Assembly: GCA_003602515.1 (NCBI GenBank)
Contig: QQSB01000003.1
Location: 15,388 to 79,387 of the forward strand
From: Candidatus Poseidoniales archaeon
GTDB taxonomy: Archaea > Thermoplasmatota > Poseidoniia > Poseidoniales > Thalassarchaeaceae
DNA: 64,000 bases
Reading direction: 5' to 3'
Shown here: positions 5,326 to 63,241 of the stretch, piece by piece
Layout: the number at the start of each line of letters is the position of its first letter
Numbering within the stretch: position 1 is the first letter of the stretch
Notes under the pieces: generated by a model
Databases searched by the model: none
What the model saw: only the letters and a program-made list of their open reading frames with translations
What the model was told of the DNA's origin: nothing
Translations under genes and position numbers: made by a program

Positions 5326-6936
5326 TTAGTTATTTTTTCCCCATCGGCGAATGGTTTGCATCAACTTGCGCAACTCTTGAGGCGTGTACGTCCGGCTTTG
5401 GCTATAAGCCAATTCCACGAGACGTGGATCTCCAATCATCGCCTGAACTTCCGGCGGAGGCCTCATTGCCATCTCGTCCCGAGTCAAATCATGGTGAATC
5501 CTCACCTTGGTAAGAAGCGCCCTCCTCACTCTGTCCCTATACGTTGCCGGGTCTAGCTTATCGGGACGCTGGTTGAATTTTGTTAGGTCGAAAACGTGCC
5601 TCCAGTTCTCCTTTTCAGGAACTACCATCATGGCTACGAGCAGAAGAAGGGCTACATTGAGGACGACTAACCACTTCAGGAACTGGTTGGATGTAAGCAG
5701 AACGACCGTACCCATAGTCTGAACAAATGGTTCCGAGAGAACCCCAGTAACGTGCCTGCTCTCATCAAAAACAACTTGGAAGTTGGCCGGATCTGATCTT
5801 ATTGGGGCGTTAAGCTCTACATTGTCGAATTCCATCATGTCGTAGACTAGAAGCGTGAAAAACCTCTCATTACCTCCCCAATCATTGTTATTCAGGATCT
5901 CCTGGGTCCAGCAGTTGTTCCGAGTGTAATCTCCGATAGCCGAGCAGTCCTGGCTCAGACCTTGATCCTGAGCAACCGCTAAATCCCATAGCAGGTTCGA
6001 GAAAGCCTCGTCATCAGAGACGAAAACTATGCTTCCAGTTACTTCCAATTCCCCCACTCCAGCTGAGAATGCCCCCCTGCTCTCATCAGCAACCTTGTCG
6101 AGGACCTTTATCCCCGGGTAGTCGAACCTCATCATTAGCCTCAGATCGCCAGTAGCCGGATTCGCTGGATTTGTAGGATCGCCATCGCCAGCTCTGTCAA
6201 TAAAGGCGGAAGGAGACGCTCTACCTAGAGTCATTATTTTTCTGTGCTCCGGATCTTCAATATCCCTGTCTGTAGGTTCGAACATCATTCCAGTTGGGCC
6301 TTTGTACATCACTGGTAGCCTACAATCATTCAAACCATCTGGGTTCTGGATTTGGAATGATGTACAACCCTGCATTAGCGCTCCGGGGGACATATCGTCT
6401 ATGTTCTGATTTACCGGAGATGCGCTCCAGACGTTCCCCCAGTCGATGAATTGTTCAGATTGTTCAGTGAAAACCCAATGCTGCTTATCGTCTTTCAATG
6501 GCGCATCCATGTACCTGACGCCGAATAAAATGGCAAGGTTATGGGCTTGCGTGTTATCAGCTGCAACAATCACCTTCCCTCCCTTTTCCGTGACAAAGCG
6601 GAAAATCTCATCCGCTTCAGTTTGATCAATTGGCTTTTCAGGTGCGATTATCGTCAGAAGTGTACGATGTGGATCTTTCCAGTCATTGACGAGCATAGGT
6701 GTGGACATAGTATTGGCGACATAGTATCCATCGTCCCTGTTCTCCACGTACTCGCCTTCGAAACTCTCTCTCATATCGGATAATTGCCCCAGCCCGCTAT
6801 CATCGTAAGCCGAGTAATTTGTTGATTTTCCGACTACGAAGAACATGGGCAGAACTAGCAGCATAATCGATGTAATTACCAAGGCATACATTACATTCCT
6901 GTTGAATCGATCTTCGCCATCCACTTCATCTGGCAT
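5326..6936 (-). CDS. DUF4350-like membrane-anchored protein
   Basis: N-terminal TM, an extracytoplasmic domain with IIAPEKPIDQTEADEIFRFVTEKGGKVIVAADN (GldG/DUF4350-like), a second TM near residue 420 and a basic cytoplasmic tail. It lies upstream of MoxR, as in many MoxR-DUF58 operons. Confidence 0.55.
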   Translation of the reverse strand: MPDEVDGEDRFNRNVMYALVITSIMLLVLPMFFVVGKSTNYSAYDDSGLGQLSDMRESFEGEYVENRDDGYYVANTMSTPMLVNDWKDPHRTLLTIIAPEKPIDQTEADEIFRFVTEKGGKVIVAADNTQAHNLAILFGVRYMDAPLKDDKQHWVFTEQSEQFIDWGNVWSASPVNQNIDDMSPGALMQGCTSFQIQNPDGLNDCRLPVMYKGPTGMMFEPTDRDIEDPEHRKIMTLGRASPSAFIDRAGDGDPTNPANPATGDLRLMMRFDYPGIKVLDKVADESRGAFSAGVGELEVTGSIVFVSDDEAFSNLLWDLAVAQDQGLSQDCSAIGDYTRNNCWTQEILNNNDWGGNERFFTLLVYDMMEFDNVELNAPIRSDPANFQVVFDESRHVTGVLSEPFVQTMGTVVLLTSNQFLKWLVVLNVALLLLVAMMVVPEKENWRHVFDLTKFNQRPDKLDPATYRDRVRRALLTKVRIHHDLTRDEMAMRPPPEVQAMIGDPRLVELAYSQSRTYTPQELRKLMQTIRRWGKNN

Positions 6937-12413: not shown

Positions 12414-13058
12414 CTAGTTGAAATCACTGATTGCCTTCTTTACAACCTCTGACTCGGCTCTTTTTAGGTGCTCACCGATGGTGCTCCTAGCTATTCCCAA
12501 CTGATCTGCAAGTTGTTTCAGCGTGACTTCCGAGCCATCTTCGTAGTAACCCCTACGAACGGCTAACTCTAGAACCTCCCTCTGCTTTTCCGTTAGAAAA
12601 TCCAAGCTCTTCTCAGATCCATTCTTTATTGTCTGGACGCTTATGGTATCGGGTGGCATCACAGTTCTGACGAATTCCAAGAAACTTCGTATAGAGCTTG
12701 AAATTCCAAAGATTCTGAACTCCAATCCATTTTTCGAGTCAATTCCATATGGCGGATAGACATAGATGTTTGATAACTCAACTGCAGATATTGCCAGAGG
12801 ATGAGTACAACGAATACTGACAAGAATTCCGCTTTCGTCTTCTTCGTGTTTCTCTAAAACCTCAAAGCTGTGTAATTCTGAGATTTCGGAAAGTTCACGC
12901 CCTTCCTTAATTTTCAATTCGACTAGTTGGGTAACACCATCGGATTCTGTTGAAAGATGACCAAGAACCTCAATTCTTTCACAGATTCCCATCAGCGTGT
13001 CGATCTCGTCAATTCCGCTCAGAGAGGAAACCTTCCATCTCAGGAGAACCTTCCTCAT
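12414..13058 (-). CDS. HTH_10 (Bat/DmsR-type) transcriptional regulator
   Basis: C-terminal LTEKQREVLELAVRRGYYEDGSEVTLKQLADQLGIARSTIGEHLKRAESEVV, a typical archaeal HTH_10. ATG at 13058 is preferred because a TATA box lies about 25 nt upstream. The longer track ORF overlaps the subtilase gene. Confidence 0.7.
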   Translation of the reverse strand: MRKVLLRWKVSSLSGIDEIDTLMGICERIEVLGHLSTESDGVTQLVELKIKEGRELSEISELHSFEVLEKHEEDESGILVSIRCTHPLAISAVELSNIYVYPPYGIDSKNGLEFRIFGISSSIRSFLEFVRTVMPPDTISVQTIKNGSEKSLDFLTEKQREVLELAVRRGYYEDGSEVTLKQLADQLGIARSTIGEHLKRAESEVVKKAISDFN

Positions 13059-13075
13059 GGCTTTGCAAGTTCTTT

Positions 13076-13090
13076 TTTCTATATAATTGC
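13076..13090 (-). promoter_or_regulatory. Candidate TATA box for the HTH_10 regulator (leaderless)
   Basis: The minus strand reads GCAATTATATAGAAAAAAG, centred about 25 nt upstream of the ATG at 13058, within the 37-nt gap after the subtilase stop. Confidence 0.4.
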
Positions 13091-13095
13091 CAACC

Positions 13096-14325
13096 CTAGT
13101 TCCAGTATGCTTCTCGAATATCCTGATTCGACTCCATACAAATCTCGACATCAAATGGCCTCTGTTGCATTGCATAACTACCATTCAGATGCTCAACAAT
13201 TGGCTTGACGTTACTTTCGTTCACAACCCCCCAGCCGACCTGTGTACACGGGGCTACGGGAGACATCGGAGTTGTCCCTGAAAGAGGGTCCCAAGTTGTG
13301 AAGGAGGGATACCAAGCAGAGAGATTCAGAGCATCTCGCAGATCGTCATTTGTCAACGAGAAATTTGTTCCATTCACTATCAATCCCATTCTTAGATTCG
13401 GATCCGCTCCAGAAGACAGGTCCCCAAATTCCGATCTTAGACTCTCCAAGACCTCCGAGAGTAGGCCAGCAGTCCTAGGCGTGGCAAAAGAAGTTCCCGA
13501 TGTCCAATGGTAGCCGTCGATATCATCGTGATTGGGCAAGAACTGTGTCCAGTCTGCCGCTATGTCGGGGTATGAGCCGCTCATAGTCTCCTTCTGATCG
13601 TCGTCTTCTTCGGCGTAGCCGGAAATTCCAATGCTCCAAGGAGGACCTGCAGTGGAGTCTTGAATTGCCGGAGAAGGGGAGTTGTCAGCGGCCCCAGTGT
13701 GAATTTTCTTTTCTTGAACCACGGCCACCTTTGTTGCATCCTCAATCCCTGGCACTGGAACTGAGAGGATCGGGCCGAAACTAGTTGTAATAATGTCAAC
13801 CAAAGGTTGGTTCGCCGCTGCTAGAACAGCAGCATCGCTGAATCCCTCGACGAAGAAAATTACCGCATCAGGATTTGCGTTAAGAACCGCTCCGGTCACT
13901 GCCGTCCCATGCCCGTCACTAGGATCATCCAGAATCGGAATCTCGGTGTTATCATCGGGGGTGGTTCCGATTATTCTGGAACCTCTAAACCAAACAATAT
14001 CTCCAGATTCTATCACGTCCCAGCAACTTTCCTTGTCAGCCTCATACCTCTCTTGCCAAGTACCATTACTGGTGATATTGCACACCATGTTCACCCCTAG
14101 TTGATCAAGAAGCCACTGCGGGTAAGACTCGTTCATCGAGAAGTGATCATGATAGACGTTGATGCCCGTGTCGATTGGCGCTACCACGCTAAATGAACCG
14201 AATCCTTCGATAACCTCAGTTTCTGTTTCCATTCCCTTGTCCTGCCCACCAAGACAACCAACAAGGGACACCGATAGCATCAGCACGGCAATGAGAGCAG
14301 CGACAGTCTTCACAATGTCCCGCAA
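13096..14325 (-). CDS. Subtilisin-family (S8) serine peptidase, lipoprotein
   Basis: Lipobox LSVSLVGC. Catalytic motifs VVAPIDTGIN (Asp), DGHGTAVTG (His) and SGTSFATPRTAG (Ser). The start codon is TTG. Confidence 0.85.
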   Translation of the reverse strand: MRDIVKTVAALIAVLMLSVSLVGCLGGQDKGMETETEVIEGFGSFSVVAPIDTGINVYHDHFSMNESYPQWLLDQLGVNMVCNITSNGTWQERYEADKESCWDVIESGDIVWFRGSRIIGTTPDDNTEIPILDDPSDGHGTAVTGAVLNANPDAVIFFVEGFSDAAVLAAANQPLVDIITTSFGPILSVPVPGIEDATKVAVVQEKKIHTGAADNSPSPAIQDSTAGPPWSIGISGYAEEDDDQKETMSGSYPDIAADWTQFLPNHDDIDGYHWTSGTSFATPRTAGLLSEVLESLRSEFGDLSSGADPNLRMGLIVNGTNFSLTNDDLRDALNLSAWYPSFTTWDPLSGTTPMSPVAPCTQVGWGVVNESNVKPIVEHLNGSYAMQQRPFDVEICMESNQDIREAYWN

Positions 14326-17697: not shown

Positions 17698-20568
17698 TCA
17701 AGTACACGCTCTCTCGATGTGCCTGACAACTACTCCTACGCTGGGAATGGTGTGATCCTCCAGAGTAGGTGAAAATGGGACTGGAGTATCCAGAGCCCCA
17801 ATTACAATCGGTGGAGACTCCATCCTCCAGAAAGACTCTTCAACAATTCTACTTGATACCGTGTGTCCGAAACCCCCTGTCCATTGTGACTCTTGCAGAA
17901 CTATCAGACGACCCGTCCTCAATACTGAATTTATACAGGTCTCGGAATCAAATGGAACGAGAGTTCTGAGATCGACTACTTCGACTTCTGTTCCCTTTTT
18001 GGAGGCCTCTCTAGCAGCATCAAGGGCAACATGAACCATCGCTCCCCATGTGACAATTGTGATGTCCCGCCCTCCACGAACTATTCGAGCAGAACCAATG
18101 GAAATATTACCACTTTCAAGCCTCTGGTCAACCGATTTAGTATCAACGATTTGGTTGATTGAATTACCCCATCCAGTCATCCCTCCCCTAAGTCCGTATA
18201 GTCCAATATGCTCAAGGTATACAACTGGATCAGGAAGGTGATGCGATTCGATCAGAAGATCATAAGCATCTTGTGGATTGCTTGGGAAGACGATTACCAG
18301 GCCCGGGTCATTCGTAAGCCACGACTCAATCATGTTCGCGTGGAATGGTCCACTACGGGTCTTTGCTCCAAGTGGAATTCTGATAGTCATGGGCACTTCA
18401 GCACCCCATCTCCATCTTAGCTGAGCTGCATTATTTACCAATGGATTCATTGCCAGTGAAGCAAAACCGCCGAATTGAATCTCTGCCAGTGGCCGCATAC
18501 CCCCCAAGGCAGCTCCTGTTGCAGAATGAATGATTATTGCCTCAGAGAGTGGCATATCCAGGAGTTTTGCTTGATGCCCTTTTGCCCTAAGTCCCAGATT
18601 CATCCCGAAAGCACCAGCGACTTCCATATCTTCCCCCATGAACAACATCTGCTCTCCAAATTGTTCAGCCAGTGTCGCCATGGCATTCTGTATGGATCTA
18701 CTGAATGTCCATGAGTTTGAAGCATCTGAAAACTTGATTCCGTATTCTCCAGAACTTAGAACCGCTTCCGGGATCTCTCCTCCTCGCTCGATTCTACTTA
18801 TCTGCTGCTCATGACTTGTTGCATCAAACAGTGAGGTCACTCCTCTTACTACTGAATTCCCCTCGGGCCACTCCATTTCTTCCAATTCACTCCTGGCTCG
18901 ATCAATCTCCTCTTCCTCTTCCTGTAGTATTCGATTCAGTACCTGTTCCCCCACTCCTGATTTAATCAGCAATTCTCTGTGGCTTGGAAGTGGGTCCTTC
19001 TCGGACCAGTATCGAAGCAAATCTCGATCAACATAACCAGGAGGATTCCCGCTTGAAGATCCGAGATATAGGTCGTCGTGATGATGCGCATGACCACAAC
19101 CCCTCATCGTCTCCACGTGAATCAGAGTGGCCCCACAACCGGCCATGGCGAATTCTCTAGCTACTGCTGAGGATGCGTAGAACATCCCTGGATCAGATCC
19201 ATCAATAGTCCACGAGGGAATTCCCATTGCGTGACCCTTGTCACCAAAAGTCTCTGCTCCAGATTGTGCTGAATTGAACGTGTCGAGAGCAATCTGATTA
19301 TTCTGAATCATAAAGCATATTGGAAGTCCACGTACTCCAGCGAAATTCATAGCCTCCCAGAACTCGCCACTACTGCTACAACCCTCTCCAACCGGAGCTA
19401 GATGAAATCTCTTCACACCAAGTTGTTTCGCAGCCAATGCCACTCCCGTTGTAGTTGCACTTGCTATTGGAAGGGGCGCTGTTGGGGGTAGTACTCTCTT
19501 ATCCCAATTCCCAATGTGCAGGTCACGCCCTCCGCCTCCCTCGATACCTCCATCCATGTATGATTCCGCCTTCCCCATTTGGGCTGCCAGAACTTCAATC
19601 GGAGTCTGCCCCATTGCTAGAGCAAGACCCATATCCCGAATCATAGGTGCCACAACGTCTGCATTTTGCCTCTCTCCCTCGGGGAGATCAATCGCTCTAA
19701 TCATTGCAGAAGCACAAGCTGCCACGCCCTCTTGCCAAGTAGATCTGAAACCCTTCCCGCCGAAAGTACCGCCATCTGGTGTCGGTAATCCAGATGCGAA
19801 TAGATCCTTTAATTGCTCATCAACTAATCTGGTTCTTATCATCCATCTCTGCCATTGTAGCCTATCTTCTACAGTTATTGAGTGGTAATGGGCAATCCTC
19901 CTCAGACAGATTTTAACATCTACTAGGAACCTCTCCATCCTTCTTTCAAGGAATACCTCTCCCGATCTTCGAGGAATGATTTCGGTTTTGCCCAAAGATG
20001 AAAGATTCGGGCCAAGAAGACGATCCGCCAATCTAATTTCCAACTTAGAAACCAGTATTTCTGAGAATTCGTGAAAGCCATCGCCGTCCAGGTGATTTGG
20101 CATCTTCAGACTATCCCAACAGTCCGAAACAGCATCCAAATGACCATCGTGCCTTTCTGCGATGAACCCCAATAAGTCATTTCTGACGTCATTAGTAGGG
20201 ACTCTATATGGGAATTTTAACGGAAGTCCCGGTTTCCAACCAGACCCCCAAATCTTCGGTAATAGAGATTGGGGGCCATCATTTGAAAGAGCGATATCAG
20301 GAGTTTCTTCCTCCAAAGATAACCCAGCGTTTCTTCTAGAAACCTCTTCTTCGAGAAATTCAATCTTAGCACGCGGATCTCTTTCCCAAATCTCCACACT
20401 CCTCGTCCTCCCCTTGCCGGAGGATGATCTATCTAGCGTGGTCCTGACCCTTTTTTCACATTTGGAGCACTTTCTGTCCAATTTATTCGTATTACTAGAC
20501 CTAGTTTTCCAAATCTGGTGGAGGCCGCATCCAGGGCACTTCCAAATCCCTATTCTTGCCAATACCAT
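17698..20568 (-). CDS. Fused 2-oxoacid dehydrogenase E1 alpha+beta (TPP-dependent) with an N-terminal zinc-ribbon extension
   Basis: TPP motif GEGCSSSGEFWEAMNFA...IQNNQIA (E1 alpha). Transketolase-like pyrimidine-binding and C-terminal domains (LDMPLSEAIIIHSATGAALGG, VEVVDLRTLVPFD; E1 beta). N-terminal CPGC...CSKC. ATG at 20568 is preferred over the TTG at 20628. Confidence 0.85.
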   Translation of the reverse strand: MVLARIGIWKCPGCGLHQIWKTRSSNTNKLDRKCSKCEKRVRTTLDRSSSGKGRTRSVEIWERDPRAKIEFLEEEVSRRNAGLSLEEETPDIALSNDGPQSLLPKIWGSGWKPGLPLKFPYRVPTNDVRNDLLGFIAERHDGHLDAVSDCWDSLKMPNHLDGDGFHEFSEILVSKLEIRLADRLLGPNLSSLGKTEIIPRRSGEVFLERRMERFLVDVKICLRRIAHYHSITVEDRLQWQRWMIRTRLVDEQLKDLFASGLPTPDGGTFGGKGFRSTWQEGVAACASAMIRAIDLPEGERQNADVVAPMIRDMGLALAMGQTPIEVLAAQMGKAESYMDGGIEGGGGRDLHIGNWDKRVLPPTAPLPIASATTTGVALAAKQLGVKRFHLAPVGEGCSSSGEFWEAMNFAGVRGLPICFMIQNNQIALDTFNSAQSGAETFGDKGHAMGIPSWTIDGSDPGMFYASSAVAREFAMAGCGATLIHVETMRGCGHAHHHDDLYLGSSSGNPPGYVDRDLLRYWSEKDPLPSHRELLIKSGVGEQVLNRILQEEEEEIDRARSELEEMEWPEGNSVVRGVTSLFDATSHEQQISRIERGGEIPEAVLSSGEYGIKFSDASNSWTFSRSIQNAMATLAEQFGEQMLFMGEDMEVAGAFGMNLGLRAKGHQAKLLDMPLSEAIIIHSATGAALGGMRPLAEIQFGGFASLAMNPLVNNAAQLRWRWGAEVPMTIRIPLGAKTRSGPFHANMIESWLTNDPGLVIVFPSNPQDAYDLLIESHHLPDPVVYLEHIGLYGLRGGMTGWGNSINQIVDTKSVDQRLESGNISIGSARIVRGGRDITIVTWGAMVHVALDAAREASKKGTEVEVVDLRTLVPFDSETCINSVLRTGRLIVLQESQWTGGFGHTVSSRIVEESFWRMESPPIVIGALDTPVPFSPTLEDHTIPSVGVVVRHIERACT

Positions 20569-20610
20569 GATTGCCCCAGAGGGTATAGTACAACAATATT
20601 GGCTATGTTT

Positions 20611-20815
20611 TTGATAGTTTAACCACAATTATTTATTTAATGTGGTATTTCTATAAAATAATTTCTATATTATCTTAATTATACCACATAAAAATGATAT
20701 ATTGTATCTAAAATAACCACATTATATCTAAAACTTTGTTAAAATCAGTAAAAAATAATAATATACCACATTAAAATGGTTTACAATAAGTAATAATACC
20801 ACATTAATACTTAAC
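20611..20815. repeat. AT-rich island with six ACCACA(T) iterons (three exact ATACCACATTAA, one inverted)
   Basis: Hand count gives 36 G/C in the 200 nt 20611-20810. Cores lie at 20622, 20641 (inverted, TGTGGT), 20683, 20716, 20765 and 20798. The island lies between the stop of the MoeB-like gene and the start of the E1 gene. Confidence 0.7.
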
Positions 20816-21907
20816 TATTCTTGGATCTACATTGTCAGACCAAGAGAGTATCCCTCCAGTCAAGTTGAAAACACGTCCAATTTCCAAATCAGATTCTATG
20901 ATGAATCTGGCCACAGCAGCCGACCTTTGTCCACTTCGGCAGTATACGACGATGTCAGTTCGCATTGGCAGCTCAGACAATCTCGTAGGAATCTCAAGAT
21001 GCATTATTCTGGCATCAGTACCTTCAATCGAAGCAATAGCCTCTTCATCCGCTCTTCTAACATCTAGAAGGAATGGTTTCCAACCGGCCTGTCTCCGTTC
21101 GAAAAGATCCTTCGCACCAATCTCTCCAAAATCTCTGCTCACTGAGTCTTCTAATCTTGTGACTCTAACTCTTTCTGGATTTTTCGAAAATGATAGTGAC
21201 CTCATTTCCATCGTCAAAGCATCAATTACCAGTAGTTTTCCTCTCAGATTTTCTCCAATTCCCAGGATTACTTTCAGTGCCTCTGAGGCCTGAAACGTTC
21301 CAACAATTCCTGGTAGTACGCCCAATACACCAGCTTCCGTGCAATTTGGCGACAATTCTGGAGGAGGGGGGGTGGGAAACAGATCACGATAATTTGGACC
21401 ACCGTTATGGTTGAATGTGGAGACTTGCCCCTCGAATCTATGTATGCTGCCGAAAATCCAGGGTTTATCCAGAATCTCACAAGCGTCCCCAATAAGATAT
21501 CGAGATTGAAAATTATCCGTCCCATCTATAATTACATCATAACCACTCAATATTTCTAATGAATTTTCATGAGTTAGCCTATCCTCCATCTCAACGACAT
21601 CAATGTCGGAATTAAGTCCCTTGATCCAGTTAGAAGCAGACTCAACCTTGGATTTGCCAACCCAGGAAGAATTGTGGATGATCTGCCTCTGTAAATTGGA
21701 TGAACTAACCGTGTCATTGTCGATAATGCCTATTCTGCCGACTCCAGCTGCAGCCAAATACATCAATGCTGGAGAGCCCAAACCTCCGGCTCCAACAACC
21801 AGGACCGATGATTTCAGCAATTTCTCCTGCCCTTCTTCTTCTACCCCCGGGAGAACAAGGTGTCTTGCGTACCTCTCCCTCTGCTCTGAACTCAAGTAGC
21901 CTGACAT
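20804..21907 (-). CDS. MoeB/ThiF/UbaA-type adenylyltransferase (E1-like) with a C-terminal rhodanese domain
   Basis: RYARHLVLPGVEEEGQEKL, VVGAGGLGSP and SNLQRQ motifs, plus a C-terminal rhodanese active-site loop VVYCRSGQRS. ATG at 21907 avoids overlap with trxB. Confidence 0.85.
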   Translation of the reverse strand: MSGYLSSEQRERYARHLVLPGVEEEGQEKLLKSSVLVVGAGGLGSPALMYLAAAGVGRIGIIDNDTVSSSNLQRQIIHNSSWVGKSKVESASNWIKGLNSDIDVVEMEDRLTHENSLEILSGYDVIIDGTDNFQSRYLIGDACEILDKPWIFGSIHRFEGQVSTFNHNGGPNYRDLFPTPPPPELSPNCTEAGVLGVLPGIVGTFQASEALKVILGIGENLRGKLLVIDALTMEMRSLSFSKNPERVRVTRLEDSVSRDFGEIGAKDLFERRQAGWKPFLLDVRRADEEAIASIEGTDARIMHLEIPTRLSELPMRTDIVVYCRSGQRSAAVARFIIESDLEIGRVFNLTGGILSWSDNVDPRIVKY

Positions 21908-21948
21908 TGTCACTGTGAAAGGGCGTCCAATCAAGGTACCTTCGGTCC

Positions 21949-22878
21949 TCAATCTTGCTCTTCCAACCACTTTTCCGCATCTATTGCTGCCTGGCATCCC
22001 ATTCCAGCAGCAGTAATCGCTTGTCGATATCTTTTGTCAACAACATCCCCTGCAGCAAATACTCCTGGGACTGCAGTCATTGTATTCTCCTTGTGGACTA
22101 TGTATCCTTCTGAGTCAGTTTCCAACTGATCATCGAGGAAACTGGTAATTGGCTTATGCCCTATTGCGATAAATGCTCCAGAGCAGCTAATCTCCTCCTC
22201 CGAACCATCTCTTGGGTCCTCTAGGACTGCCCCAATAAGGCCCTGATCGCCCGCAATCCATTTTTTCACCTGCCTGAATGTCTTGATCTCTATTTTTGGG
22301 TGCTCAGCAGCCCTTTCGTACATCACCTTAGACGCCTTGAAAACCTCCCGTCTGTGGATTACAGTAACCTTGCTAGCAAACCTAGTCAGGAAAATCGCTT
22401 CCTCCATAGCAGAATCCCCTCCTCCAACAACAATAATCTCCTCGTCTCGGAAGAAAGCCCCGTCACAAGTGGCACAAGTCGATATTCCACGTCCCTTCTG
22501 CTCCTCCTCGCCTTCCGCCCCTAGCCAAATCGCTTCTGCACCGGTGCAAATTATCAGCGACTCTGCCTTGAACTCCTCTCCCTCTACCCAGACACTAAAG
22601 GGGCGTTGCGAAAGATCCACTCTTTCCACATTCTTGTCTTGGACCTCTAAACCGAATCTTTCCGCTTGTTCCCTCATTTCTACCATCATCTCAGGCCCAC
22701 CAATTCCCTTTGGATACCCTGGAAAGTTCTCTACATCCGAAGTTAGCATTAGTTGGCCTCCTGACATGTATCCGGCGAACATCAGTGGACTCAGCAGCGC
22801 TCTAGCCGAGTACAGTCCTGCAGTGTAACCTGCAGGCCCCGATCCAACGATGATCACGCTCTTGACGTCCTCGCCCAT
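21949..22878 (-). CDS. trxB: Thioredoxin-disulfide reductase
   Basis: GSGPAGYTA (FAD), redox-active CATCDG, GGGDSAMEEA (NADPH) and GDV motifs. Confidence 0.9.
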   Translation of the reverse strand: MGEDVKSVIIVGSGPAGYTAGLYSARALLSPLMFAGYMSGGQLMLTSDVENFPGYPKGIGGPEMMVEMREQAERFGLEVQDKNVERVDLSQRPFSVWVEGEEFKAESLIICTGAEAIWLGAEGEEEQKGRGISTCATCDGAFFRDEEIIVVGGGDSAMEEAIFLTRFASKVTVIHRREVFKASKVMYERAAEHPKIEIKTFRQVKKWIAGDQGLIGAVLEDPRDGSEEEISCSGAFIAIGHKPITSFLDDQLETDSEGYIVHKENTMTAVPGVFAAGDVVDKRYRQAITAAGMGCQAAIDAEKWLEEQD

Positions 22879-22988
22879 AAGTCACCGCGGTGTAAGGCAT
22901 CCCTTGAATCTTGACAGTCAAATCACCATGTCGAATCGGCAAAATAATGAAAGAAATCGTAATATAACGACCATCCAGCGGACGAATC

Positions 22989-23309
22989 ATGCCAAAATAC
23001 ATGTATTCTGGAAACTACACTAAGGAAGGTGCCGCTGGTCTGCTAAAGGACGGGGGCAAGGCAAGGAAGGAAGAAGCCAAGAGAATAGTGGAAGCTATGG
23101 GTGGATCCCTGGAATCTTACTATTGGTCATTCGGAGAGATGGATTTCATGATGATCGCCGACGTCCCCGAGGCCATGGCTGTGAAGTTCTCCCTCCATGT
23201 GGGAGCATCGGGAGTTTTCAACGGAAAGCTGACGCCACTAATCACCGTCGAGGCAATGGAAGAAGCCACTTCCACTGAGTTGCCTTCGATGCGCCTTCCT
23301 GGCGAGTGA
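22989..23309 (+). CDS. GYD-domain protein
   Basis: 106 aa. The pattern MPKYMYSGNYT...G..S.YWSFGEMDFMMIADVP matches the GYD family. Confidence 0.7.
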   Translation: MPKYMYSGNYTKEGAAGLLKDGGKARKEEAKRIVEAMGGSLESYYWSFGEMDFMMIADVPEAMAVKFSLHVGASGVFNGKLTPLITVEAMEEATSTELPSMRLPGE

Positions 23310-23318
23310 TGCCTTAGT

Positions 23319-23714
23319 TCACTCAGACATCGCTGCGACCGCACCGACTGCGGACCTTGCATGGGGCTCCAGCCTCGGCTCGATGTGTTCAGGCTCGGCA
23401 CCAGGGCCAATTATTCCTAATCCGATCGGCTTGTTGTACTTGATTTGCAATTCAATAATCGACATAGTTACGGAATTTCCCATCACAAGGCCATGATCAG
23501 TCTGGCCGCGTTCGATAATACCCAAGACAATCGCTCCATGGATTTCTTCATTCTGGAGCATCCTGTCAAGAGCGAGGGGCGCCTCCATAGAACCGGGAAC
23601 CCAAATGACATCTCGAACTAGTAGGTTCTTGGAAGCCGCCTCATCTCTGGCAAATTCAAGCATCCTCTCTACTTCTTCACGATGAAAAGACCCACAAACA
23701 ACTCCAAGATTCAT
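23319..23714 (-). CDS. ribH: 6,7-dimethyl-8-ribityllumazine synthase
   Basis: 131 aa. VPGSMEAPLA and GIIERGQTDHGLVMGNSV resemble the VPGAFE...IRGxTxH lumazine synthase motifs. Its start overlaps the ribE stop (ATGA). Confidence 0.8.
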   Translation of the reverse strand: MNLGVVCGSFHREEVERMLEFARDEAASKNLLVRDVIWVPGSMEAPLALDRMLQNEEIHGAIVLGIIERGQTDHGLVMGNSVTMSIIELQIKYNKPIGLGIIGPGAEPEHIEPRLEPHARSAVGAVAAMSE

Positions 23715-24310
23715 GATTTTCCCATCCTGAGCATCGTCTCCACAACTGCTTGGGTTCTCGAGTCTATCTCAATGTTTACTCTGTCCCCTATGACCTTCTT
23801 ATCCAGTGTGGTAATTCTCAGAGTCTCTGGAATAATGTGCAAACCGAAACTCTCCTCATCACATTTCCCCACGGTTAGGGACATTCCATCAACAGCAATG
23901 TATCCCTTCTCTAGTATGAATGGGGAGCATCCATCTGGAATGGATATTAGAAGGTCCAAACCCTCTCCAACTGTGTTCATCTCTAATATTTCAGCCGTCC
24001 CCATCACATGCCCAGATAGGATATGGCCCCCTAACTCGTCTCCGAGCCTCATCGACCTCTCGACATTGAGCAGATCTCCCTCCGACCTATCGGCTAGGGT
24101 TGTCCTATCCAGCGTCTCTGTAATCGCATCAAAGGTCACCTCTCCGGAGTCCATGCTAACCACGGTCATGCATACGCCATCTAGGGATACGCTTGCTCCA
24201 GATTCAAGTCCGTCCACTAAATCTCCCAGATCCACTGTTATTTTGCGGATCCCCTCGCCTTCGACAATCTTCAGAATAGGTACAGTTCCAGACACAATTC
24301 CCGTAAACAT
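23711..24310 (-). CDS. ribE: Riboflavin synthase, bacterial/eukaryotic (trimeric, two-barrel) type
   Basis: MFTGIV start. Internal duplication (GASVSLDGVCMTV / GYIAVDGMSLTV) and GGHILSGHV. ATG at 24310 lies 2 nt after the ribL stop. Confidence 0.85.
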   Translation of the reverse strand: MFTGIVSGTVPILKIVEGEGIRKITVDLGDLVDGLESGASVSLDGVCMTVVSMDSGEVTFDAITETLDRTTLADRSEGDLLNVERSMRLGDELGGHILSGHVMGTAEILEMNTVGEGLDLLISIPDGCSPFILEKGYIAVDGMSLTVGKCDEESFGLHIIPETLRITTLDKKVIGDRVNIEIDSRTQAVVETMLRMGKS

Positions 24311-24312
24311 AC

Positions 24313-24774
24313 TCAGTCCTCCTCGTAGGGTCCACCCTCTGTGTTTGGCCACAAATCTAGAATCCTTGCAATAATCTTCCTAGTCCCGTCTAGATCATCT
24401 GAAAGACCCTCGACTCGAGTCACTTCGACTTTTTCGAAGCCAGCATTGTCAAGACCAGATCTAATCGCGTCAATCGAGTGCTTCTGATCATATCCCAGTG
24501 CAATAAGATCGGGCTTCACTTCCCTCAAAATCTCGAAAATTGGCACCCCCGGGGGATTCCCAACAATTGCCTTGTCTACGGGCTTAAGCCCCTCCACCAT
24601 TCTTCTCCTCAACTCCTGACCTGTGACTGGTTCATGTTTCTGATTCCTTACGGTCTCATCATTGGCAATGACTACAATAAGCTCGTCACCAAGTGATTTT
24701 GCTTGCTCAACGTAGTGCAAATGGCCTGCATGCAGGAGGTCGAAGATCCCAACTGCCATTACTCTGACCATCAT
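24313..24774 (-). CDS. ribL: Archaeal FAD synthetase (CTP-dependent cytidylyltransferase fold)
   Basis: AVGIFDLLHAGHLHYVEQAKSLGDELIVVIANDETV...LKPVDKAIVG closely parallels Methanocaldococcus RibL. Confidence 0.8.
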   Translation of the reverse strand: MMVRVMAVGIFDLLHAGHLHYVEQAKSLGDELIVVIANDETVRNQKHEPVTGQELRRRMVEGLKPVDKAIVGNPPGVPIFEILREVKPDLIALGYDQKHSIDAIRSGLDNAGFEKVEVTRVEGLSDDLDGTRKIIARILDLWPNTEGGPYEED

Positions 24775-24797
24775 TGAGTCCCCGTTGATATCTTCGC

Positions 24798-25529
24798 CTA
24801 ATCCTTTTCATCGAAAGCAGTAGAAATCTGATCCCCAGTAATCATCGGAATCCCATACCTATCTGCATAATCCCTGGCTCCTTCCAAGGACAACGCACCA
24901 TCGCCATCGGTCTCCAGCATTTCCGCACCAATTGTACAGGGGACCAAACCTGCCAATCTGGCTATCGATACAGCCAGTTCAGTGTGCCCCTCCCTCGTCT
25001 TTAGCCCCCCAGGAGACTCTCTGCACACAGGGATATGTCCAGGGGTCCTGAATTCCTTGCCCAATTGAGAGAGTGCGAACTCGCCGCCAGAACCACTATC
25101 CAACAATTCTCCAGACAGTTCCCCGAACCTTCTTGTTGTCAGAGCCCTGTCTCTATCGGTAATTCCCGTATACGTCTCTCTGTGGTTTAGAGAAAGAGTG
25201 AAGGCAGATCTCGAATCGTACTGCAGATCGTTTGTAACTAGATGACCAAGTACGGGGTTCTCTCTAATCAAGGAATCATGAGAATGTAGGTCCTGTAGCC
25301 ATGGGAGTCCAAACATCTCCCCGATTTCATTCCCAATAGCTAGGAATAGTAGACCCCCGCAGTCGTTCCGCAGTCTCCTGATTATCTCTGGCGTAGTCGA
25401 TGTTGCAGGCCATAGAAGATCCGTCTCCTTCTCTCTGAAATCTGAGTCAAAGATCATTACCGGATTCCCTGACTTGAATGCGGCAATCGCTCTGGCCACT
25501 CCGTCGTCCATGTCAGGCGGAGGGGCCAT
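24798..25529 (-). CDS. ribB: 3,4-dihydroxy-2-butanone 4-phosphate synthase
   Basis: MIFDSDFREKETDLLWPA, GGLLFLA, TPGHIPV and REGHTELAV motifs. ATG at 25529 is preferred; the longer track ORF has no family-like N-terminus. Confidence 0.85.
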   Translation of the reverse strand: MAPPPDMDDGVARAIAAFKSGNPVMIFDSDFREKETDLLWPATSTTPEIIRRLRNDCGGLLFLAIGNEIGEMFGLPWLQDLHSHDSLIRENPVLGHLVTNDLQYDSRSAFTLSLNHRETYTGITDRDRALTTRRFGELSGELLDSGSGGEFALSQLGKEFRTPGHIPVCRESPGGLKTREGHTELAVSIARLAGLVPCTIGAEMLETDGDGALSLEGARDYADRYGIPMITGDQISTAFDEKD

Positions 25530-25588
25530 TGATACCCGATACTTTCGGTCCAGAAATAATGATGTCTTGGGGCAAACCCCGCGAGTTG

Positions 25589-26461
25589 ATGGTAGTAGCC
25601 AACTCATCATCTTCTCCCGTCCGAGTCGATCTTGCCGGAGGTTGGACAGACGTGGGCCCATATCCTAGGGACTTCGGAGGTGAGGTCGTAAACTTCGCCA
25701 TAAATCTCAGAGTTTTTGCTAGGGCTGGCTCAGATTCAGATAATACAGAGACTAACTTTGAGTTTCCAGTACCCAGGGGCTCTGGTCTGGGGACCAGTTC
25801 TGCCATGAATGTCGCCTTGTCTGCACTGATCTCACCCGATCAAATTGAAGATCAGGAGAAACTCGCCGAGGAGGCCTTCGTTCTCGAGTCAGAATCTGGA
25901 AATTATTGTGGCAGGCAAGATCAGTGGGCCTCGGCATTAGGTGGTTTCAACCATCTACTGTTCATCGGTGACACTGTCGAGAGGATGCCATTTGAGCCAA
26001 TGAGGTCATCATTGAATTGGCTGAAGAAGCACCTCGTTATCTCATTCTCGGGTAAAAGCAGGAATTCCGGAGATATGCAAGAATCCGTTTGGTCCAGATA
26101 CTCAAATGATGACCAGGATGTTATCAACGGCCTCCACAAGATTAGGGGTGCTGCTAGGGTAATGGCAAATGGACTCCAACAAGACCGTAGAGACATGGTG
26201 GTCGCTTCATTGAATGAGATCTGCGAGGGTGTGGACTTGATGGACAGGGCAATCCATGACCCATTCAGAGATGTTGTAGATCCTCTCATCGATAGTGGTT
26301 CTGCTGTAGCTTGGAAGGCATTGGGGGCCGGAGGAGGAGGGTGTTCAGCAATTTTATGCTCTCCCATGGGGCGTGACGAGGTTATTCAGGCAATAGAAAG
26401 AGCGAGATGGGAGATAATTGATTGGGATTTCGATAACACAGGTGTAATGATACACGATTGA
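25589..26461 (+). CDS. GHMP-family kinase, substrate unknown (COG2605-like sugar/acid kinase)
   Basis: PVRVDLAGGWTD N-terminus, motif II PRGSGLGTSSAMNVA and motif III KALGAGGGGC. ATG at 25589 gives the family-typical N-terminus; alternatives are at 25559 and 25478. Confidence 0.7.
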   Translation: MVVANSSSSPVRVDLAGGWTDVGPYPRDFGGEVVNFAINLRVFARAGSDSDNTETNFEFPVPRGSGLGTSSAMNVALSALISPDQIEDQEKLAEEAFVLESESGNYCGRQDQWASALGGFNHLLFIGDTVERMPFEPMRSSLNWLKKHLVISFSGKSRNSGDMQESVWSRYSNDDQDVINGLHKIRGAARVMANGLQQDRRDMVVASLNEICEGVDLMDRAIHDPFRDVVDPLIDSGSAVAWKALGAGGGGCSAILCSPMGRDEVIQAIERARWEIIDWDFDNTGVMIHD

Positions 26462-61435: not shown

Positions 61436-62410
61436 ATGGTGGAAAATAGGCTAATCGAGCACACCGGGTCCGAGTTCCCGATAATCTGCGGGGCAATGTA
61501 CCCATGTTCGAATCCTGAGCTGGTCGCAGCAGCAGCAAATGGCGGGGGGATGGCCATCATTCAACCAGTCTCTTTGACTGTGGTACACGGCTTTGACAAG
61601 CCCGACCTGAATCAGGGCCTGATAGATGGCATCCGTTACATCAGGTCCAAGACGAATAGGCCGATTGGGTTCAATGCCCTGATAGAGAAGGGCAACGACA
61701 AGTACCTGCAGAGGATGTCCGAATGGATTGACATCGCGCTAGACGAGGGAATCAGGTTCTTCGTGACCTCCCTGGGGAAGCCAGACTGGGTATGCGATAG
61801 GGTGCACTCAAGGGGTGGCTTCGTCTACCACGATGTAACGACCCGATTCCATGCCGAGAAGGGGGTCGAGTGTGGTGTTGATGGTCTGATTTGTGTCAAC
61901 GACAGGGCAGGAGGGCATCTGGGTACCGGCAGCATGGAGGAGATGTACGAATCCCTCTCCGACCTAGGATTGCCCCTGATTTGCGCTGGGGGCATTGGCA
62001 GTGAGGAGGAGTTGACAGATGCTCTCAAGATCGGCTATGAGGGAGTCCAGATGGGGACTCGGTTCATCGCTACCGAAGAGTGCTCTATGCCAGAAGGATA
62101 CAAGCAGGCCATAGTGGGAGCAAGTGAGGGCGATATCGACTGGACTGTCAAGCTCACTGGAATCCCTGTCTCGGTCATCAAGACCCCAAAGTACCGCAGG
62201 GAGAATCCATGGTTCGTCCGAGCCCTCCTATCAGGCCGATTCAAGCATAGGACCCGATGGCTGATGAACACGATATCATTCAGACGCTGGAGGAGGATGT
62301 CCAGCGGGGCGAAGTCATCCGACATTTGGTCGGCAGGCAAGAGTGTGGAGACTATCGAAAGCGTTGAGTCGGCGACCACGATAATGAGGAGGCTCGGTGA
62401 GGCCCTATGA
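61436..62410 (+). CDS. Nitronate monooxygenase / FabK-like FMN oxidoreductase (NMO family)
   Basis: PIICGAM, VNDRAGGH, ICAGGIG and GVQMGTRF motifs. Confidence 0.85.
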   Translation: MVENRLIEHTGSEFPIICGAMYPCSNPELVAAAANGGGMAIIQPVSLTVVHGFDKPDLNQGLIDGIRYIRSKTNRPIGFNALIEKGNDKYLQRMSEWIDIALDEGIRFFVTSLGKPDWVCDRVHSRGGFVYHDVTTRFHAEKGVECGVDGLICVNDRAGGHLGTGSMEEMYESLSDLGLPLICAGGIGSEEELTDALKIGYEGVQMGTRFIATEECSMPEGYKQAIVGASEGDIDWTVKLTGIPVSVIKTPKYRRENPWFVRALLSGRFKHRTRWLMNTISFRRWRRMSSGAKSSDIWSAGKSVETIESVESATTIMRRLGEAL

Positions 62411-62728
62411 GAACAAAACGGGCCACTTCCTCTTAATGGCTCTGAAAATCACCCTGGAGACTACCATAGAAGTGAGTAGGAAGGCAACTGATGCCCATAG
62501 AGGGGCTTCACCGCTAGTCGCGAGCAGATAGGTTACAGCCAGAATTCCTGCTCCGTAGACCGCGCGAAATGCAGAGAAGACTAACAAAGCCCGCAACGCT
62601 TTGCTTCCTAGAACTCCTCGATTCAATGTAGTGCTCGGGGTCTCGTCCATCAGATCATTGCCAAGCAGCCATTCCCTACACTTAGTCGTGACCTTGTCGA
62701 AAACTGGTAGTACTTGGCACCACATCAA
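62405..62728 (-). CDS. Small membrane protein (2 TM)
   Basis: 107-aa ORF with two hydrophobic helices. Convergent 6-nt overlap with the NMO gene stop. Confidence 0.45.
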   Translation of the reverse strand: MMWCQVLPVFDKVTTKCREWLLGNDLMDETPSTTLNRGVLGSKALRALLVFSAFRAVYGAGILAVTYLLATSGEAPLWASVAFLLTSMVVSRVIFRAIKRKWPVLFS

Positions 62729-62790
62729 ACTCCTAACTATGGAAATATTAATTTGAATACCTTAAAATAATAATATGCTTTCCAAACATC

Positions 62791-62856
62791 ATGCCTTGTG
62801 ACTGCTGCGACTGCGACCCCTGTGGTCCTACTTGTTCGTGCGATGATTGCTGTTAA
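62791..62856 (+). CDS. Cys-rich 21-aa micro-protein MPCDCCDCDPCGPTCSCDDCC (metallothionein-like candidate)
   Basis: ATG...TAA read directly from the DNA. 9 Cys and 5 Asp in 21 residues. It is a GC-rich codon block inside an AT-rich spacer. TATA-like TTAAAATAATAATAT lies 15-30 nt upstream. Too short for the supplied ORF track. Confidence 0.45.
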   Translation: MPCDCCDCDPCGPTCSCDDCC

Positions 62857-62917
62857 GTTATACAGCAAGCCATCTTATTGATAGATGCTAATTCGTACCA
62901 TAGAGGTTCGAATAGAA

Positions 62918-63109
62918 TCAGTTTACTCCGAATTCAGAGTCTAGTTTGTTCATTGTATCCTGAATATCCTCTACAATCTCGAAAAGTGAATTATCCTTGG
63001 TGTAAACGAGTAGTTTGCCACCGCCCTCAGTTTCCTGGTATGCACATATTGCATCCATCCTTATTCTCGTCATTCCGCCCTCAGTCATTGCCTTGATCCA
63101 ACCTGTCAT
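62918..63109 (-). CDS. Small hypothetical protein
   Basis: 63-aa ORF in an AT-richer patch. No secure motif. Confidence 0.35.
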   Translation of the reverse strand: MTGWIKAMTEGGMTRIRMDAICAYQETEGGGKLLVYTKDNSLFEIVEDIQDTMNKLDSEFGVN

Positions 63110-63241
63110 CAGGTCGCCGCCTCGCGAGTTGAATTTAGTCTATGCCCCTAGTTTCTCACGCTTGCCGATGCGAGCATCACATTCCCTGGATGATTATGCC
63201 GACGTAACAATGACTATTCGTCACCCTAATCGCTCCGAAAC

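Follow-up and report, generated by a model that had tools for sequence, protein, structure and literature searches.

The AT-rich island between a moeB-like gene and the gene for a zinc-ribbon 2-oxoacid dehydrogenase E1 in this Poseidoniales archaeon is, with a probability that we put at roughly 0.6, a dedicated cis-regulatory (operator) array that would control transcription of the E1 gene. The window, by which we mean the whole 64-kb stretch of DNA that was analysed, carries moeB and E1 on the minus strand, which places the island on the 3' side of moeB and on the 5' side of E1. The product of the upstream gene matches the Pfam families ThiF and Rhodanese (MoeB-like). The downstream gene encodes a fused E1_dh/Transket_pyr/Transketolase_C protein: a 2-oxoacid dehydrogenase E1 of the thiamine-diphosphate-dependent type, its alpha and beta parts fused. 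Its CxxC...CxxC N-terminus belongs to no Pfam family. The E1 start codon is most likely the ATG at 20568. Because homologues begin at this ATG, we took the spacer as the 235 nt between the moeB stop and E1 start codons, which have a GC content of about 18%. The positions of all features discussed below are collected in Table 1.

Table 1. Features of the moeB-E1 region in window coordinates. Negative numbers are distances in nt from the E1 ATG.
Feature	Position	Strand	Remarks
AT-rich intergenic island	20569..20803	-	entire box array and probable E1 core promoter; conserved in ~55 species
Box 1 TTAATGTGGTAT (core 20798-20803)	20796..20807	-	-235; PWM 19.1 bits; distal member of dyad A; overlaps moeB stop codon
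Box 2 (core 20765-20770)	20763..20774	-	-202; 33 nt from box 1; 18.7 bits
Box 3 TAATGTGGTTAT (core 20716-20721)	20714..20725	-	-153; first of dyad B; 12.9 bits
Box 4 TTTATGTGGTAT (core 20683-20688)	20681..20692	-	-120; 33 nt from box 3
Box 5, inverted (TGTGGT at 20641-20646)	20637..20648	+	-78; palindrome with box 6, 13 A/T between
Box 6 AATTGTGGTTAA, promoter-proximal (core 20622-20627)	20620..20629	-	-59
Near-invariant CCAATATTGTTGTACTA	20586..20602	-	probable BRE/TATA core promoter, overlapped by the putative last operator site
Box-like TGTTGTA	20589-20595	-	-27; 32 nt downstream of box 6; inside CCAATATTGTTGTACTA
E1 codons 1-80, basic CxxC...CxxC zinc ribbon, Gly/Arg loop SGKGRTR	20329..20568	-	candidate DNA-binding module
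E1 gene, 956 aa	17698..20568	-	zinc ribbon, linker, conserved ~200-aa region, fused alpha/beta E1
MoeB/ThiF-rhodanese gene	20804..21997	-	final codons form the 5' flank of box 1
82-nt unit, two copies (20680-20724, 20762-20806)	20680..20806	-	one 33-nt dyad in each copy

The composition of the island sets it apart from the rest of the window. A sequence-only reading of this DNA had counted 36 G/C among the 200 nt at 20611-20810 (18%), and we obtained the same figure. A sliding 200-nt scan showed that the island is the sole stretch of the window to fall below 34% GC (mean 50.1%, sd 4.1%). The repeats described in that reading were also recovered. Five ACCACA cores are present on the plus strand and a sixth, inverted one, on the minus strand at 20641. 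The direct copies are spaced by 33, 49 and 33 nt, the inverted pair formed by boxes 5 and 6 encloses 13 A/T nucleotides, and the last copy abuts and overlaps the moeB stop codon (20804-20806). The final codons of moeB read AAG TAT TAA in the window and AAA TAT TAA in most species. The 12-mer ATACCACATTAA is exact in boxes 1 and 2 and, inverted, in box 5, as had been noted; box 4 is an additional copy with one mismatch. These four matches compare with 0.19 expected, and at least four were reached in 0/100 shuffles.

ACCACA itself is not enriched in the window (28 observed versus 26.8 expected), and the signal of the island therefore lies in clustering. Dinucleotide-preserving shuffles of the 242-nt spacer gave a mean of 0.2 cores and a maximum of 3, the observed six being reached in 0/5000 cases. 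Read along the gene strand, the box of the window is TTAATGTGGTAT, and the position weight matrix (PWM) built from the sites gives the consensus TTWAWTGTGGTAW, with information content concentrated in a G-containing heptamer in which GGT is invariant. The four distal boxes are covered by an 82-nt unit present in two copies that are 76% identical. On sequence grounds this duplication is lineage-specific and accounts for the presence of six boxes rather than three.

Comparison of the spacer in related genomes had been proposed as a check, and it revealed that about 55 species have kept both island and boxes. A scan using one genome per species provided 80 Poseidoniales loci around E1 homologues (L011-L090); ten contigs of the same species (L001-L010) were uninformative because their spacer is identical. 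An AT island is located directly upstream of E1 in every ribbon-bearing locus, all of them from Thalassarchaeaceae (MGIIb). The minimum GC fraction per 150 nt ranges from 0.12 to 0.32, with a single case at 0.39, and this range includes genomes of 59-62% GC. Nearly all ribbon-bearing loci contain one to six exact copies of TGTGGT on the gene strand. There are none in L033, which has variant boxes only, or in L062, which has two inverted exact copies.

The boxes are also conserved in position. Their distances from the E1 ATG are nearly constant in about 50 species, at -59 (within 3 nt), -121 and -154. The -154/-121 pair is found in nearly all species, the proximal box lies at -53 to -62 in most of them, and some have an optional further pair at -203/-236 or -215/-248. 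Box 5 of the window is found only in closer relatives. Across species, 66 adjacent same-strand spacings are of exactly 33 nt, and the dyads conform to the consensus TGTGGTA-N11-AGTATA-N3-TTTAAT-TGTGGTA. Since 33 bp correspond to three helical turns, the two members of a dyad are on the same face of the DNA. Inverted boxes likewise occupy conserved positions (box 5 in the window, both proximal boxes in L057 and L060-L063), which argues for recognition of duplex DNA. When 13 spacers were aligned, boxes and core element were invariant and the sequence between boxes drifted freely; the boxes thus form a phylogenetic footprint, being better conserved than the surrounding non-coding DNA. A divergent ribbon-E1 locus from a GOS contig (L097) has kept the AT island and the phasing (34, 33, 33 and 32 nt) with TTATGTA as its box.

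We then asked where else the paired boxes occur. Using the PWM on both strands of the window and L011-L090 (1.05 Mb in total), we found 63 box pairs at 33-nt spacing, all in E1 upstream spacers; none was detected outside these spacers in this 1.05 Mb of MGIIb DNA, which consists of locus stretches from genomes of about 2 Mb each. An exact scan of metagenomes with the pattern TGTGGT-N21-TTT-N3-TGTGGTA returned 120 stretches. Seventeen of the 120 are moeB-E1 spacers, AT-rich and with two to five boxes; the rest correspond to isolated chance pairs or unrelated repeats, and none of them is an AT-rich multi-box array. The identical pattern produced 59 matches in viral contigs, none with three or more boxes. 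Evidence for a regulon extending beyond E1 was thus found neither in the 1.05 Mb nor in the one metagenome scan and the one viral scan. The motif might have turned out to be a common genome-wide promoter element, an outcome that would have spoken against the sequence-only reading. We rejected this candidate: ACCACA is unenriched in the window, the pairs are confined to E1 spacers throughout the 1.05 Mb scanned, and the array is therefore not a general promoter element but specific to the E1 locus.

The promoter-proximal end of the island contains a further box-like element, TGT(T/A)GTA; 51 of 52 species have it at -20 to -29, at a distance of 31-33 nt downstream of the proximal box. The block around it, C.AATATTGT.GTACTA, is the longest invariant one in the spacer, and the near-invariant CGAAtATTTGTTGTACTA is probably the BRE/TATA core promoter. 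In E1 genes that lack the ribbon, the region from about -45 to -25 contains CCGAATCGTTTGAATGG-like or CGAAGGA...CCTTTGTATGC elements, and CGAA...TTTG(T/A)A-like elements are found at similar distances. These elements resemble the CGAAtATTTGTTGTA block of the ribbon clade, which we accordingly read as a putative BRE/TATA overlapped by the last operator site. Overlap with the core promoter is the usual position of archaeal repressor sites. Some genes of the window have a TATA-like ATATAA at about -30. Many species have an SD-like GGAG/GGGG at -12 to -7 of the E1 gene, which leaves room for a transcription start somewhat further upstream than assumed. With such a promoter, the E1 start would fall about 25 nt downstream of the CGAATATTTG element, and moeB transcripts would end at T-runs. 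No hairpin terminators were found, and a sigma-70 promoter scan is irrelevant to archaea. The proximal box was also considered as a BRE for an alternative TFB and discarded: L057 and L060-L063 have it in the opposite orientation at an unchanged position.

A heavily regulated E1 promoter was one of the two possibilities that the sequence-only reading had left side by side, and it is the one that our comparisons favour. The sites are footprints that lie upstream of the probable core promoter or overlap it, and in about 50 species they keep the same distances from the start codon (-154/-121/-59 and about -28). A box-like element within the probable core promoter closes the array, which in the DNA scanned occurs only at this promoter.

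The same island could be regarded as generic AT-rich structural DNA, consisting of a moeB terminator and a nucleoid-protein-free or intrinsically bent upstream region that stimulates the E1 promoter. The role of the boxes would then be to position a general chromatin protein or a general transcription factor, with no dedicated regulator. T5-T6 runs do follow moeB on the gene strand, AT-richness is maintained even in loci with low box scores, and the 33-bp period is near the length of DNA per archaeal histone dimer. However, the site of a general factor should recur, whereas the pairs occur solely here in 1.05 Mb and the other upstream regions of the window have 40-60% GC. Furthermore, the information of the sites resides in a specific G-containing heptamer and its invariant GGT. 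We consider both a structural role and the positioning of a general factor improbable.

The island has a constant partner in the N-terminal domain of E1. Island and N-terminal ribbon (about 95 aa) occur together in about 55 loci and are both missing from 22 others (L065-L084, L088 and L089), with no mixed case; the two groups of E1 look like clades separated by perhaps one or two independent events, to which the L097 variant adds a further case, so that this co-occurrence provides weak statistical support for autoregulation. In the 22 ribbon-less loci, the E1 protein begins at a position corresponding to residue ~97, moeB and E1 are separated by other genes, and the upstream DNA is of normal composition without boxes. 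The ribbon is strongly basic. Many of its Arg, Lys and Trp residues are invariant, and it has a conserved S-G-[KRQ]-G-R loop, a Gly/Arg loop that we take to resemble an AT-hook core. An AlphaFold2 model shows a five-stranded zinc ribbon and a helix, followed by a disordered linker (pLDDT ~80-86 for the strands of the ribbon, falling to 62-72 in the Gly/Arg loop). Within the main group, boxes and ribbon show almost no co-variation, the variation being too small to be used.

Searches for relatives of the ribbon gave nothing significant in Pfam, PHROGs, a PDB sequence search, a phage collection or Foldseek against the PDB, where the best match had E = 0.2 and the weak matches were to ribosomal proteins and aRF1. 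Nor did these searches reveal any similarity to known Rep proteins. Foldseek against BFVD matched two unnamed viral proteins (E = 8.7e-5 and 2.1e-3). A profile search of 1.84 billion representative proteins recovered 52 ribbon relatives. These are E1 fragments and stand-alone basic proteins of 80-180 aa, with RGRP in place of the GKGRTR of E1.

Stand-alone ribbon homologues are encoded on contigs of about 4.6-4.9 kb that are circular permutations of each other, with terminal overlaps of 55-144 nt. One of these contigs is listed as a viral genome in IMG/VR. These circular elements have about 11 small ORFs, just three of which have family matches: a short C5 methylase (a Dam methylase in another member), phrog_15826 (unknown function) and a small Phage_tail_APC-like protein. 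The ribbon gene is the first or second in a divergent operon, near a divergent intergenic region. A 19-mer, GTACCCTATC[G/C]TCTTGAAA, is located just upstream of the ribbon-E1 ATG of L097 and is common to this locus and one circular element. There are hints in these sequences that the ribbon and part of the leader may have been exchanged between circular elements and the MGIIb chromosome.

Such an exchange raises the possibility that the island is a relic. A regulatory or origin region of a mobile element would have been inserted behind moeB with its zinc-ribbon gene, the latter becoming fused in frame to E1, and the boxes would be binding sites left over from the element, now of little or no function. 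The presence of ribbon homologues beside a divergent intergenic region on virus-like circles, the 19-mer of L097 and the behaviour of ribbon and island as a single presence/absence unit are in line with this scenario. On the other hand, box sequence, spacing and position are under strong purifying selection among loci whose E1 proteins are only 64-96% identical, which argues for a current function. In addition, the circular elements contain neither the AT island nor TGTGGTA arrays, there is no tRNA gene in the window and no integrase nearby. It is thus unlikely that the island is a relic, and unlikely too that its boxes are idle. Capture would account for the origin of the module and not for its maintenance, and is therefore compatible with an operator array.

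The second possibility left by the sequence-only reading, an origin-like or iteron element, found no support. The boxes would be binding sites for an initiator and the AT-rich DNA an unwinding element, either of a chromosomal origin or of an origin-like iteron element. The island is indeed easily melted (18% GC over 200 nt), as an unwinding element should be; the short boxes are at helical phasing with one inverted pair bracketing 13 A/T bases; and the adjacent gene begins with a possible nucleic-acid-binding domain whose relatives are found on small circular replicons. Archaeal ORB and mini-ORB sequences have a consensus such as TTCCAGTGGAAAC and are typically inverted around the unwinding element. 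However, no match to them was found in 20569-20803 at up to 3 mismatches, and the boxes are TGTGGTA with five of six in direct orientation. The earlier remark that no orc1/cdc6 gene is adjacent was confirmed: no ORF with an Orc1/Cdc6-type P-loop (G..G.GK[ST]) exists in the 64 kb, and Pfam detected none within 10 kb on either side, where only metabolic and transport genes are present.

The cumulative GC skew, which had been suggested as a test, follows gene strand in the window and runs straight through the island at 20.7 kb without inflection, nor is there a switch in gene orientation. The distances from boxes to the E1 start codon, exact to the nucleotide, suit a promoter and are not needed by an origin. 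The element is absent from related Poseidoniales with ribbon-less E1, and many species have only two or three boxes. MGII genomes encode Cdc6/Orc1 elsewhere (PMC3914693), so that a conventional origin is to be expected elsewhere. As in an iteron replicon, phased direct repeats are present beside AT-rich DNA, but the adjacent gene encodes a TPP-dependent E1 and not an initiator. We conclude that a role in replication initiation is very improbable.

An RNA element, in which UGUGGUA repeats in the moeB 3'UTR or the E1 5'UTR would fold or bind an RNA-binding protein (possibly the ribbon), is hardly credible either: most boxes are oriented as the genes, zinc ribbons often bind RNA, the ribbon has its weak Foldseek matches to ribosomal proteins and aRF1, and the spacer folds slightly better than shuffles, but this z-score of -1.83 is weak and stems from the inverted box pair, Rfam gave no match, inverted copies occupy conserved positions and orientation flips between clades, the T-runs should end moeB transcripts inside the island, and the strict 33-nt spacing is naturally meaningful on duplex DNA.

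Coming back to the operator array, we propose the following mode of action. A distal dyad at -154/-121 is joined by a second one, formed by the box at about -59 and the box-like TGT(T/A)GTA at about -28, and in some lineages by a third dyad through the 82-nt duplication. A dimeric or oligomeric DNA-binding protein would occupy these dyads cooperatively on easily bent AT-rich DNA. Once occupied, the -28 site would occlude TBP, TFB or RNA polymerase, and E1 transcription would be repressed. The best candidate for the binding protein may be E1 itself, with its strongly basic N-terminal zinc ribbon, Gly/Arg loop and flexible linker. A fused alpha-beta E1 should homodimerise and would thus present two ribbon heads, fitting a dyad. 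Free E1 would in this way limit its own synthesis, by a negative autoregulation of the trigger-enzyme type.

That the ribbon domain of E1, rather than a separate factor, recognises the boxes is nonetheless a tentative proposal. So is the complete scenario, which we consider possible though doubtful, of MGIIb E1 as a trigger enzyme that binds 33-bp TGTGGTA dyads in its own promoter through its ribbon, represses itself, and owes the module to capture from an element of about 4.7 kb. The main alternative within the operator model would be a separate regulator. An HTH_10 regulator encoded at 12414-13151 (minus strand) was examined as the possible binder and set aside, having no specific link to the array; its gene lies 4-5 kb downstream in 19 ribbon-clade loci, beside xanthine-dehydrogenase-like genes.

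Few archaea of the surface ocean are as abundant as those of marine group II, of which we know no cultured member. Literature searches retrieved no paper on Poseidoniales promoters, transcription factors or gene regulation, and TGTGGTA was nowhere found reported as an archaeal motif. As far as these searches show, no earlier description exists of the box, of its arrangement in 33-bp dyads, of so extreme a local AT content or of the link with a ribbon-fused E1. The locus supplies a precisely defined MGII cis-element, with its box, 33-bp phasing and fixed promoter positions in about 55 species, and the candidate binder is encoded in the same gene as the array. If the ribbon does bind, a 2-oxoacid dehydrogenase E1 would for the first time have been shown to regulate itself, and a function would be provided for an uncharacterised zinc-ribbon family that E1 shares with small marine virus-like elements. 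If it does not, the array would still be a clean bait for finding an MGII transcription factor.

The island can finally be compared with known systems. With archaeal oriC it shares an AT-rich stretch containing repeated short boxes, one pair of which is inverted. It differs in lacking a nearby orc1/cdc6 gene and ORB-like sequences, in showing no skew signal beyond that of gene strand, in having mostly direct boxes and in being absent from sister lineages. In iteron plasmids, iterons and an AT-rich region adjoin a rep gene that is autoregulated through inverted partial iterons. The resemblance here is one of layout only: the E1 locus also has phased direct repeats by AT-rich DNA and an inverted pair near the promoter of the adjacent gene, and the N-terminal domain of E1, putatively DNA-binding, has relatives among the proteins of small circular elements. 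In contrast to these replicons, the locus is chromosomal and without a replication protein, the adjacent gene encodes a metabolic enzyme, conservation is limited to a core of 7-13 bp and the boxes are locked to the start codon.

Archaeal operator arrays are known from the regularly spaced Ss-LrpB boxes in the promoter of its own gene, the upstream sites of Ptr2 and the EarA boxes upstream of the fla BRE. The E1 array is similar to them in its repeated boxes upstream of or overlapping BRE/TATA, in helical phasing and in conserved positions. Its box sequence matches none of theirs, its sites are asymmetric heptamers in 33-bp dyads instead of 13-15-bp palindromes, and its extreme local AT content is unusual for a genome of 50% GC. 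As regards the putative binder, PutA, BirA and the archaeal RbkR are trigger enzymes or enzyme-regulators that control their own genes; we know of no 2-oxoacid dehydrogenase E1 with such a role. The E1 domain is an uncharacterised zinc ribbon and not a ribbon-helix-helix or winged helix, and its putative sites are directly repeated, with 33-bp phasing, inside an island of 18% GC. Like these proteins, E1 is an enzyme with an extra small N-terminal domain, here putatively of the nucleic-acid-binding type, and has several short sites in its own promoter region, in an array specific to its locus.

The gene order around moeB and the fused 2-oxoacid dehydrogenase E1 gene places thiamine/sulfur-carrier, flavin and TPP-enzyme genes in series on one strand. 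Upstream of moeB there is a thioredoxin-reductase-like gene that overlaps the moeB start by 49 nt at its 3′ end, together with a riboflavin cluster encoding DHBP synthase, a CTP_transf_like protein, riboflavin synthase and lumazine synthase. On the other side of E1, a gene for an HTH_10-type regulator adjoins XdhC and xanthine-dehydrogenase-like genes. This regulator was found in 19 loci of the clade whose E1 carries the N-terminal zinc ribbon; the flanking regions of ribbon-less loci showed no copy of it. It probably controls the adjacent molybdoenzyme cluster. The second most AT-rich upstream stretch of the window (27% GC) corresponds to the final 70 nt of the gap preceding gene 62405-62725 (-); TGTGGTA boxes are absent from this gap.

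Coordinates of features in the window and of a stand-alone ribbon gene
Feature	Location	Strand	Position or remark
HTH_10-type regulator gene	window 12414-13151	-	4-5 kb downstream of E1
Thioredoxin-reductase-like gene and riboflavin cluster	window 21949-25661	-	upstream of moeB
516-nt gap without long ORF	window 62726-63241		upstream of gene 62405-62725 (-)
Stand-alone ribbon gene (example)	L096:2505-2816		

Two E1 loci showed anomalies of the reading frame. In L044, from another Poseidoniales genome (one MAG), an in-frame stop at about position 6040 (E1 codon ~14) replaces the second Cys of the first CxxC knuckle, giving CPN*MHHQ where L043 reads CPNCMHHQ. The stop is due to an error in sequencing or to a mutation that inactivates the ribbon, and the AT-rich island of L044 is still intact. 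In a contig of the same species as the window (L002:11430-14292), E1 was called as two ORFs of 287 and 668 aa, implying a frameshift or an assembly error.

The metagenome scan for paired TGTGGT boxes also returned other repeats. The family TGTGGTGTCCTGTGGTTCTTGAACAT(T/G)TTTGTGTGTGGTA, present on many contigs (L113, L124, L127, L133, L137, L142, L150 and others) mostly from a few JGI samples (Ga0131853, Ga0123352-54, Ga0136643), is unrelated to the MGIIb E1 array. Another contig carries, outside any E1 context, 35.7 copies of the 33-nt satellite TAATGTGGTAGTTCACACTACAGCTGTATATTT (L112:118-1294). It has a TAATGTGGTA box and a 33-nt period in common with the MGIIb array, a likeness that is probably a coincidence picked out by the search pattern.

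In the GOS contig L097, which encodes a divergent ribbon-E1, the island (70-281) has a still higher AT content, and five TTATGTA/ATGATGTA boxes, spaced by 34, 33, 33 and 32 nt, replace TGTGGTA. Its ribbon is likewise divergent, with WFSS for WKTR and GQGRTS for GKGRTR.

Stand-alone homologues of the ribbon domain are carried by contigs of ~4.6-4.9 kb from metagenomes and IMG/VR (L092-L096, L099-L105, L226). These contigs are circularly permuted relative to each other and their ends overlap by 55-144 nt, so they correspond to small circular elements. A 19-mer, GTACCCTATC[G/C]TCTTGAAA, located immediately upstream of the divergent ribbon-E1 ATG (L097:258-276), recurs on the 4.7-kb circular element, within its divergent intergenic region (L096:2067-2085, and in L092-L095). 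The two versions are identical at 18 of 19 positions (blastn-short, E = 0.007) and could represent a shared leader, operator or recombination site. The elements (45-60% GC) contain about 11 small ORFs arranged as two divergent blocks. Matches to known families were limited to a short methylase (C5 or Dam), an 80-aa Phage_tail_APC-like protein and phrog_15826, a family of unknown function. One of them is an IMG/VR viral genome, and together they appear to form a so far uncharacterised family of very small, virus-like marine replicons.
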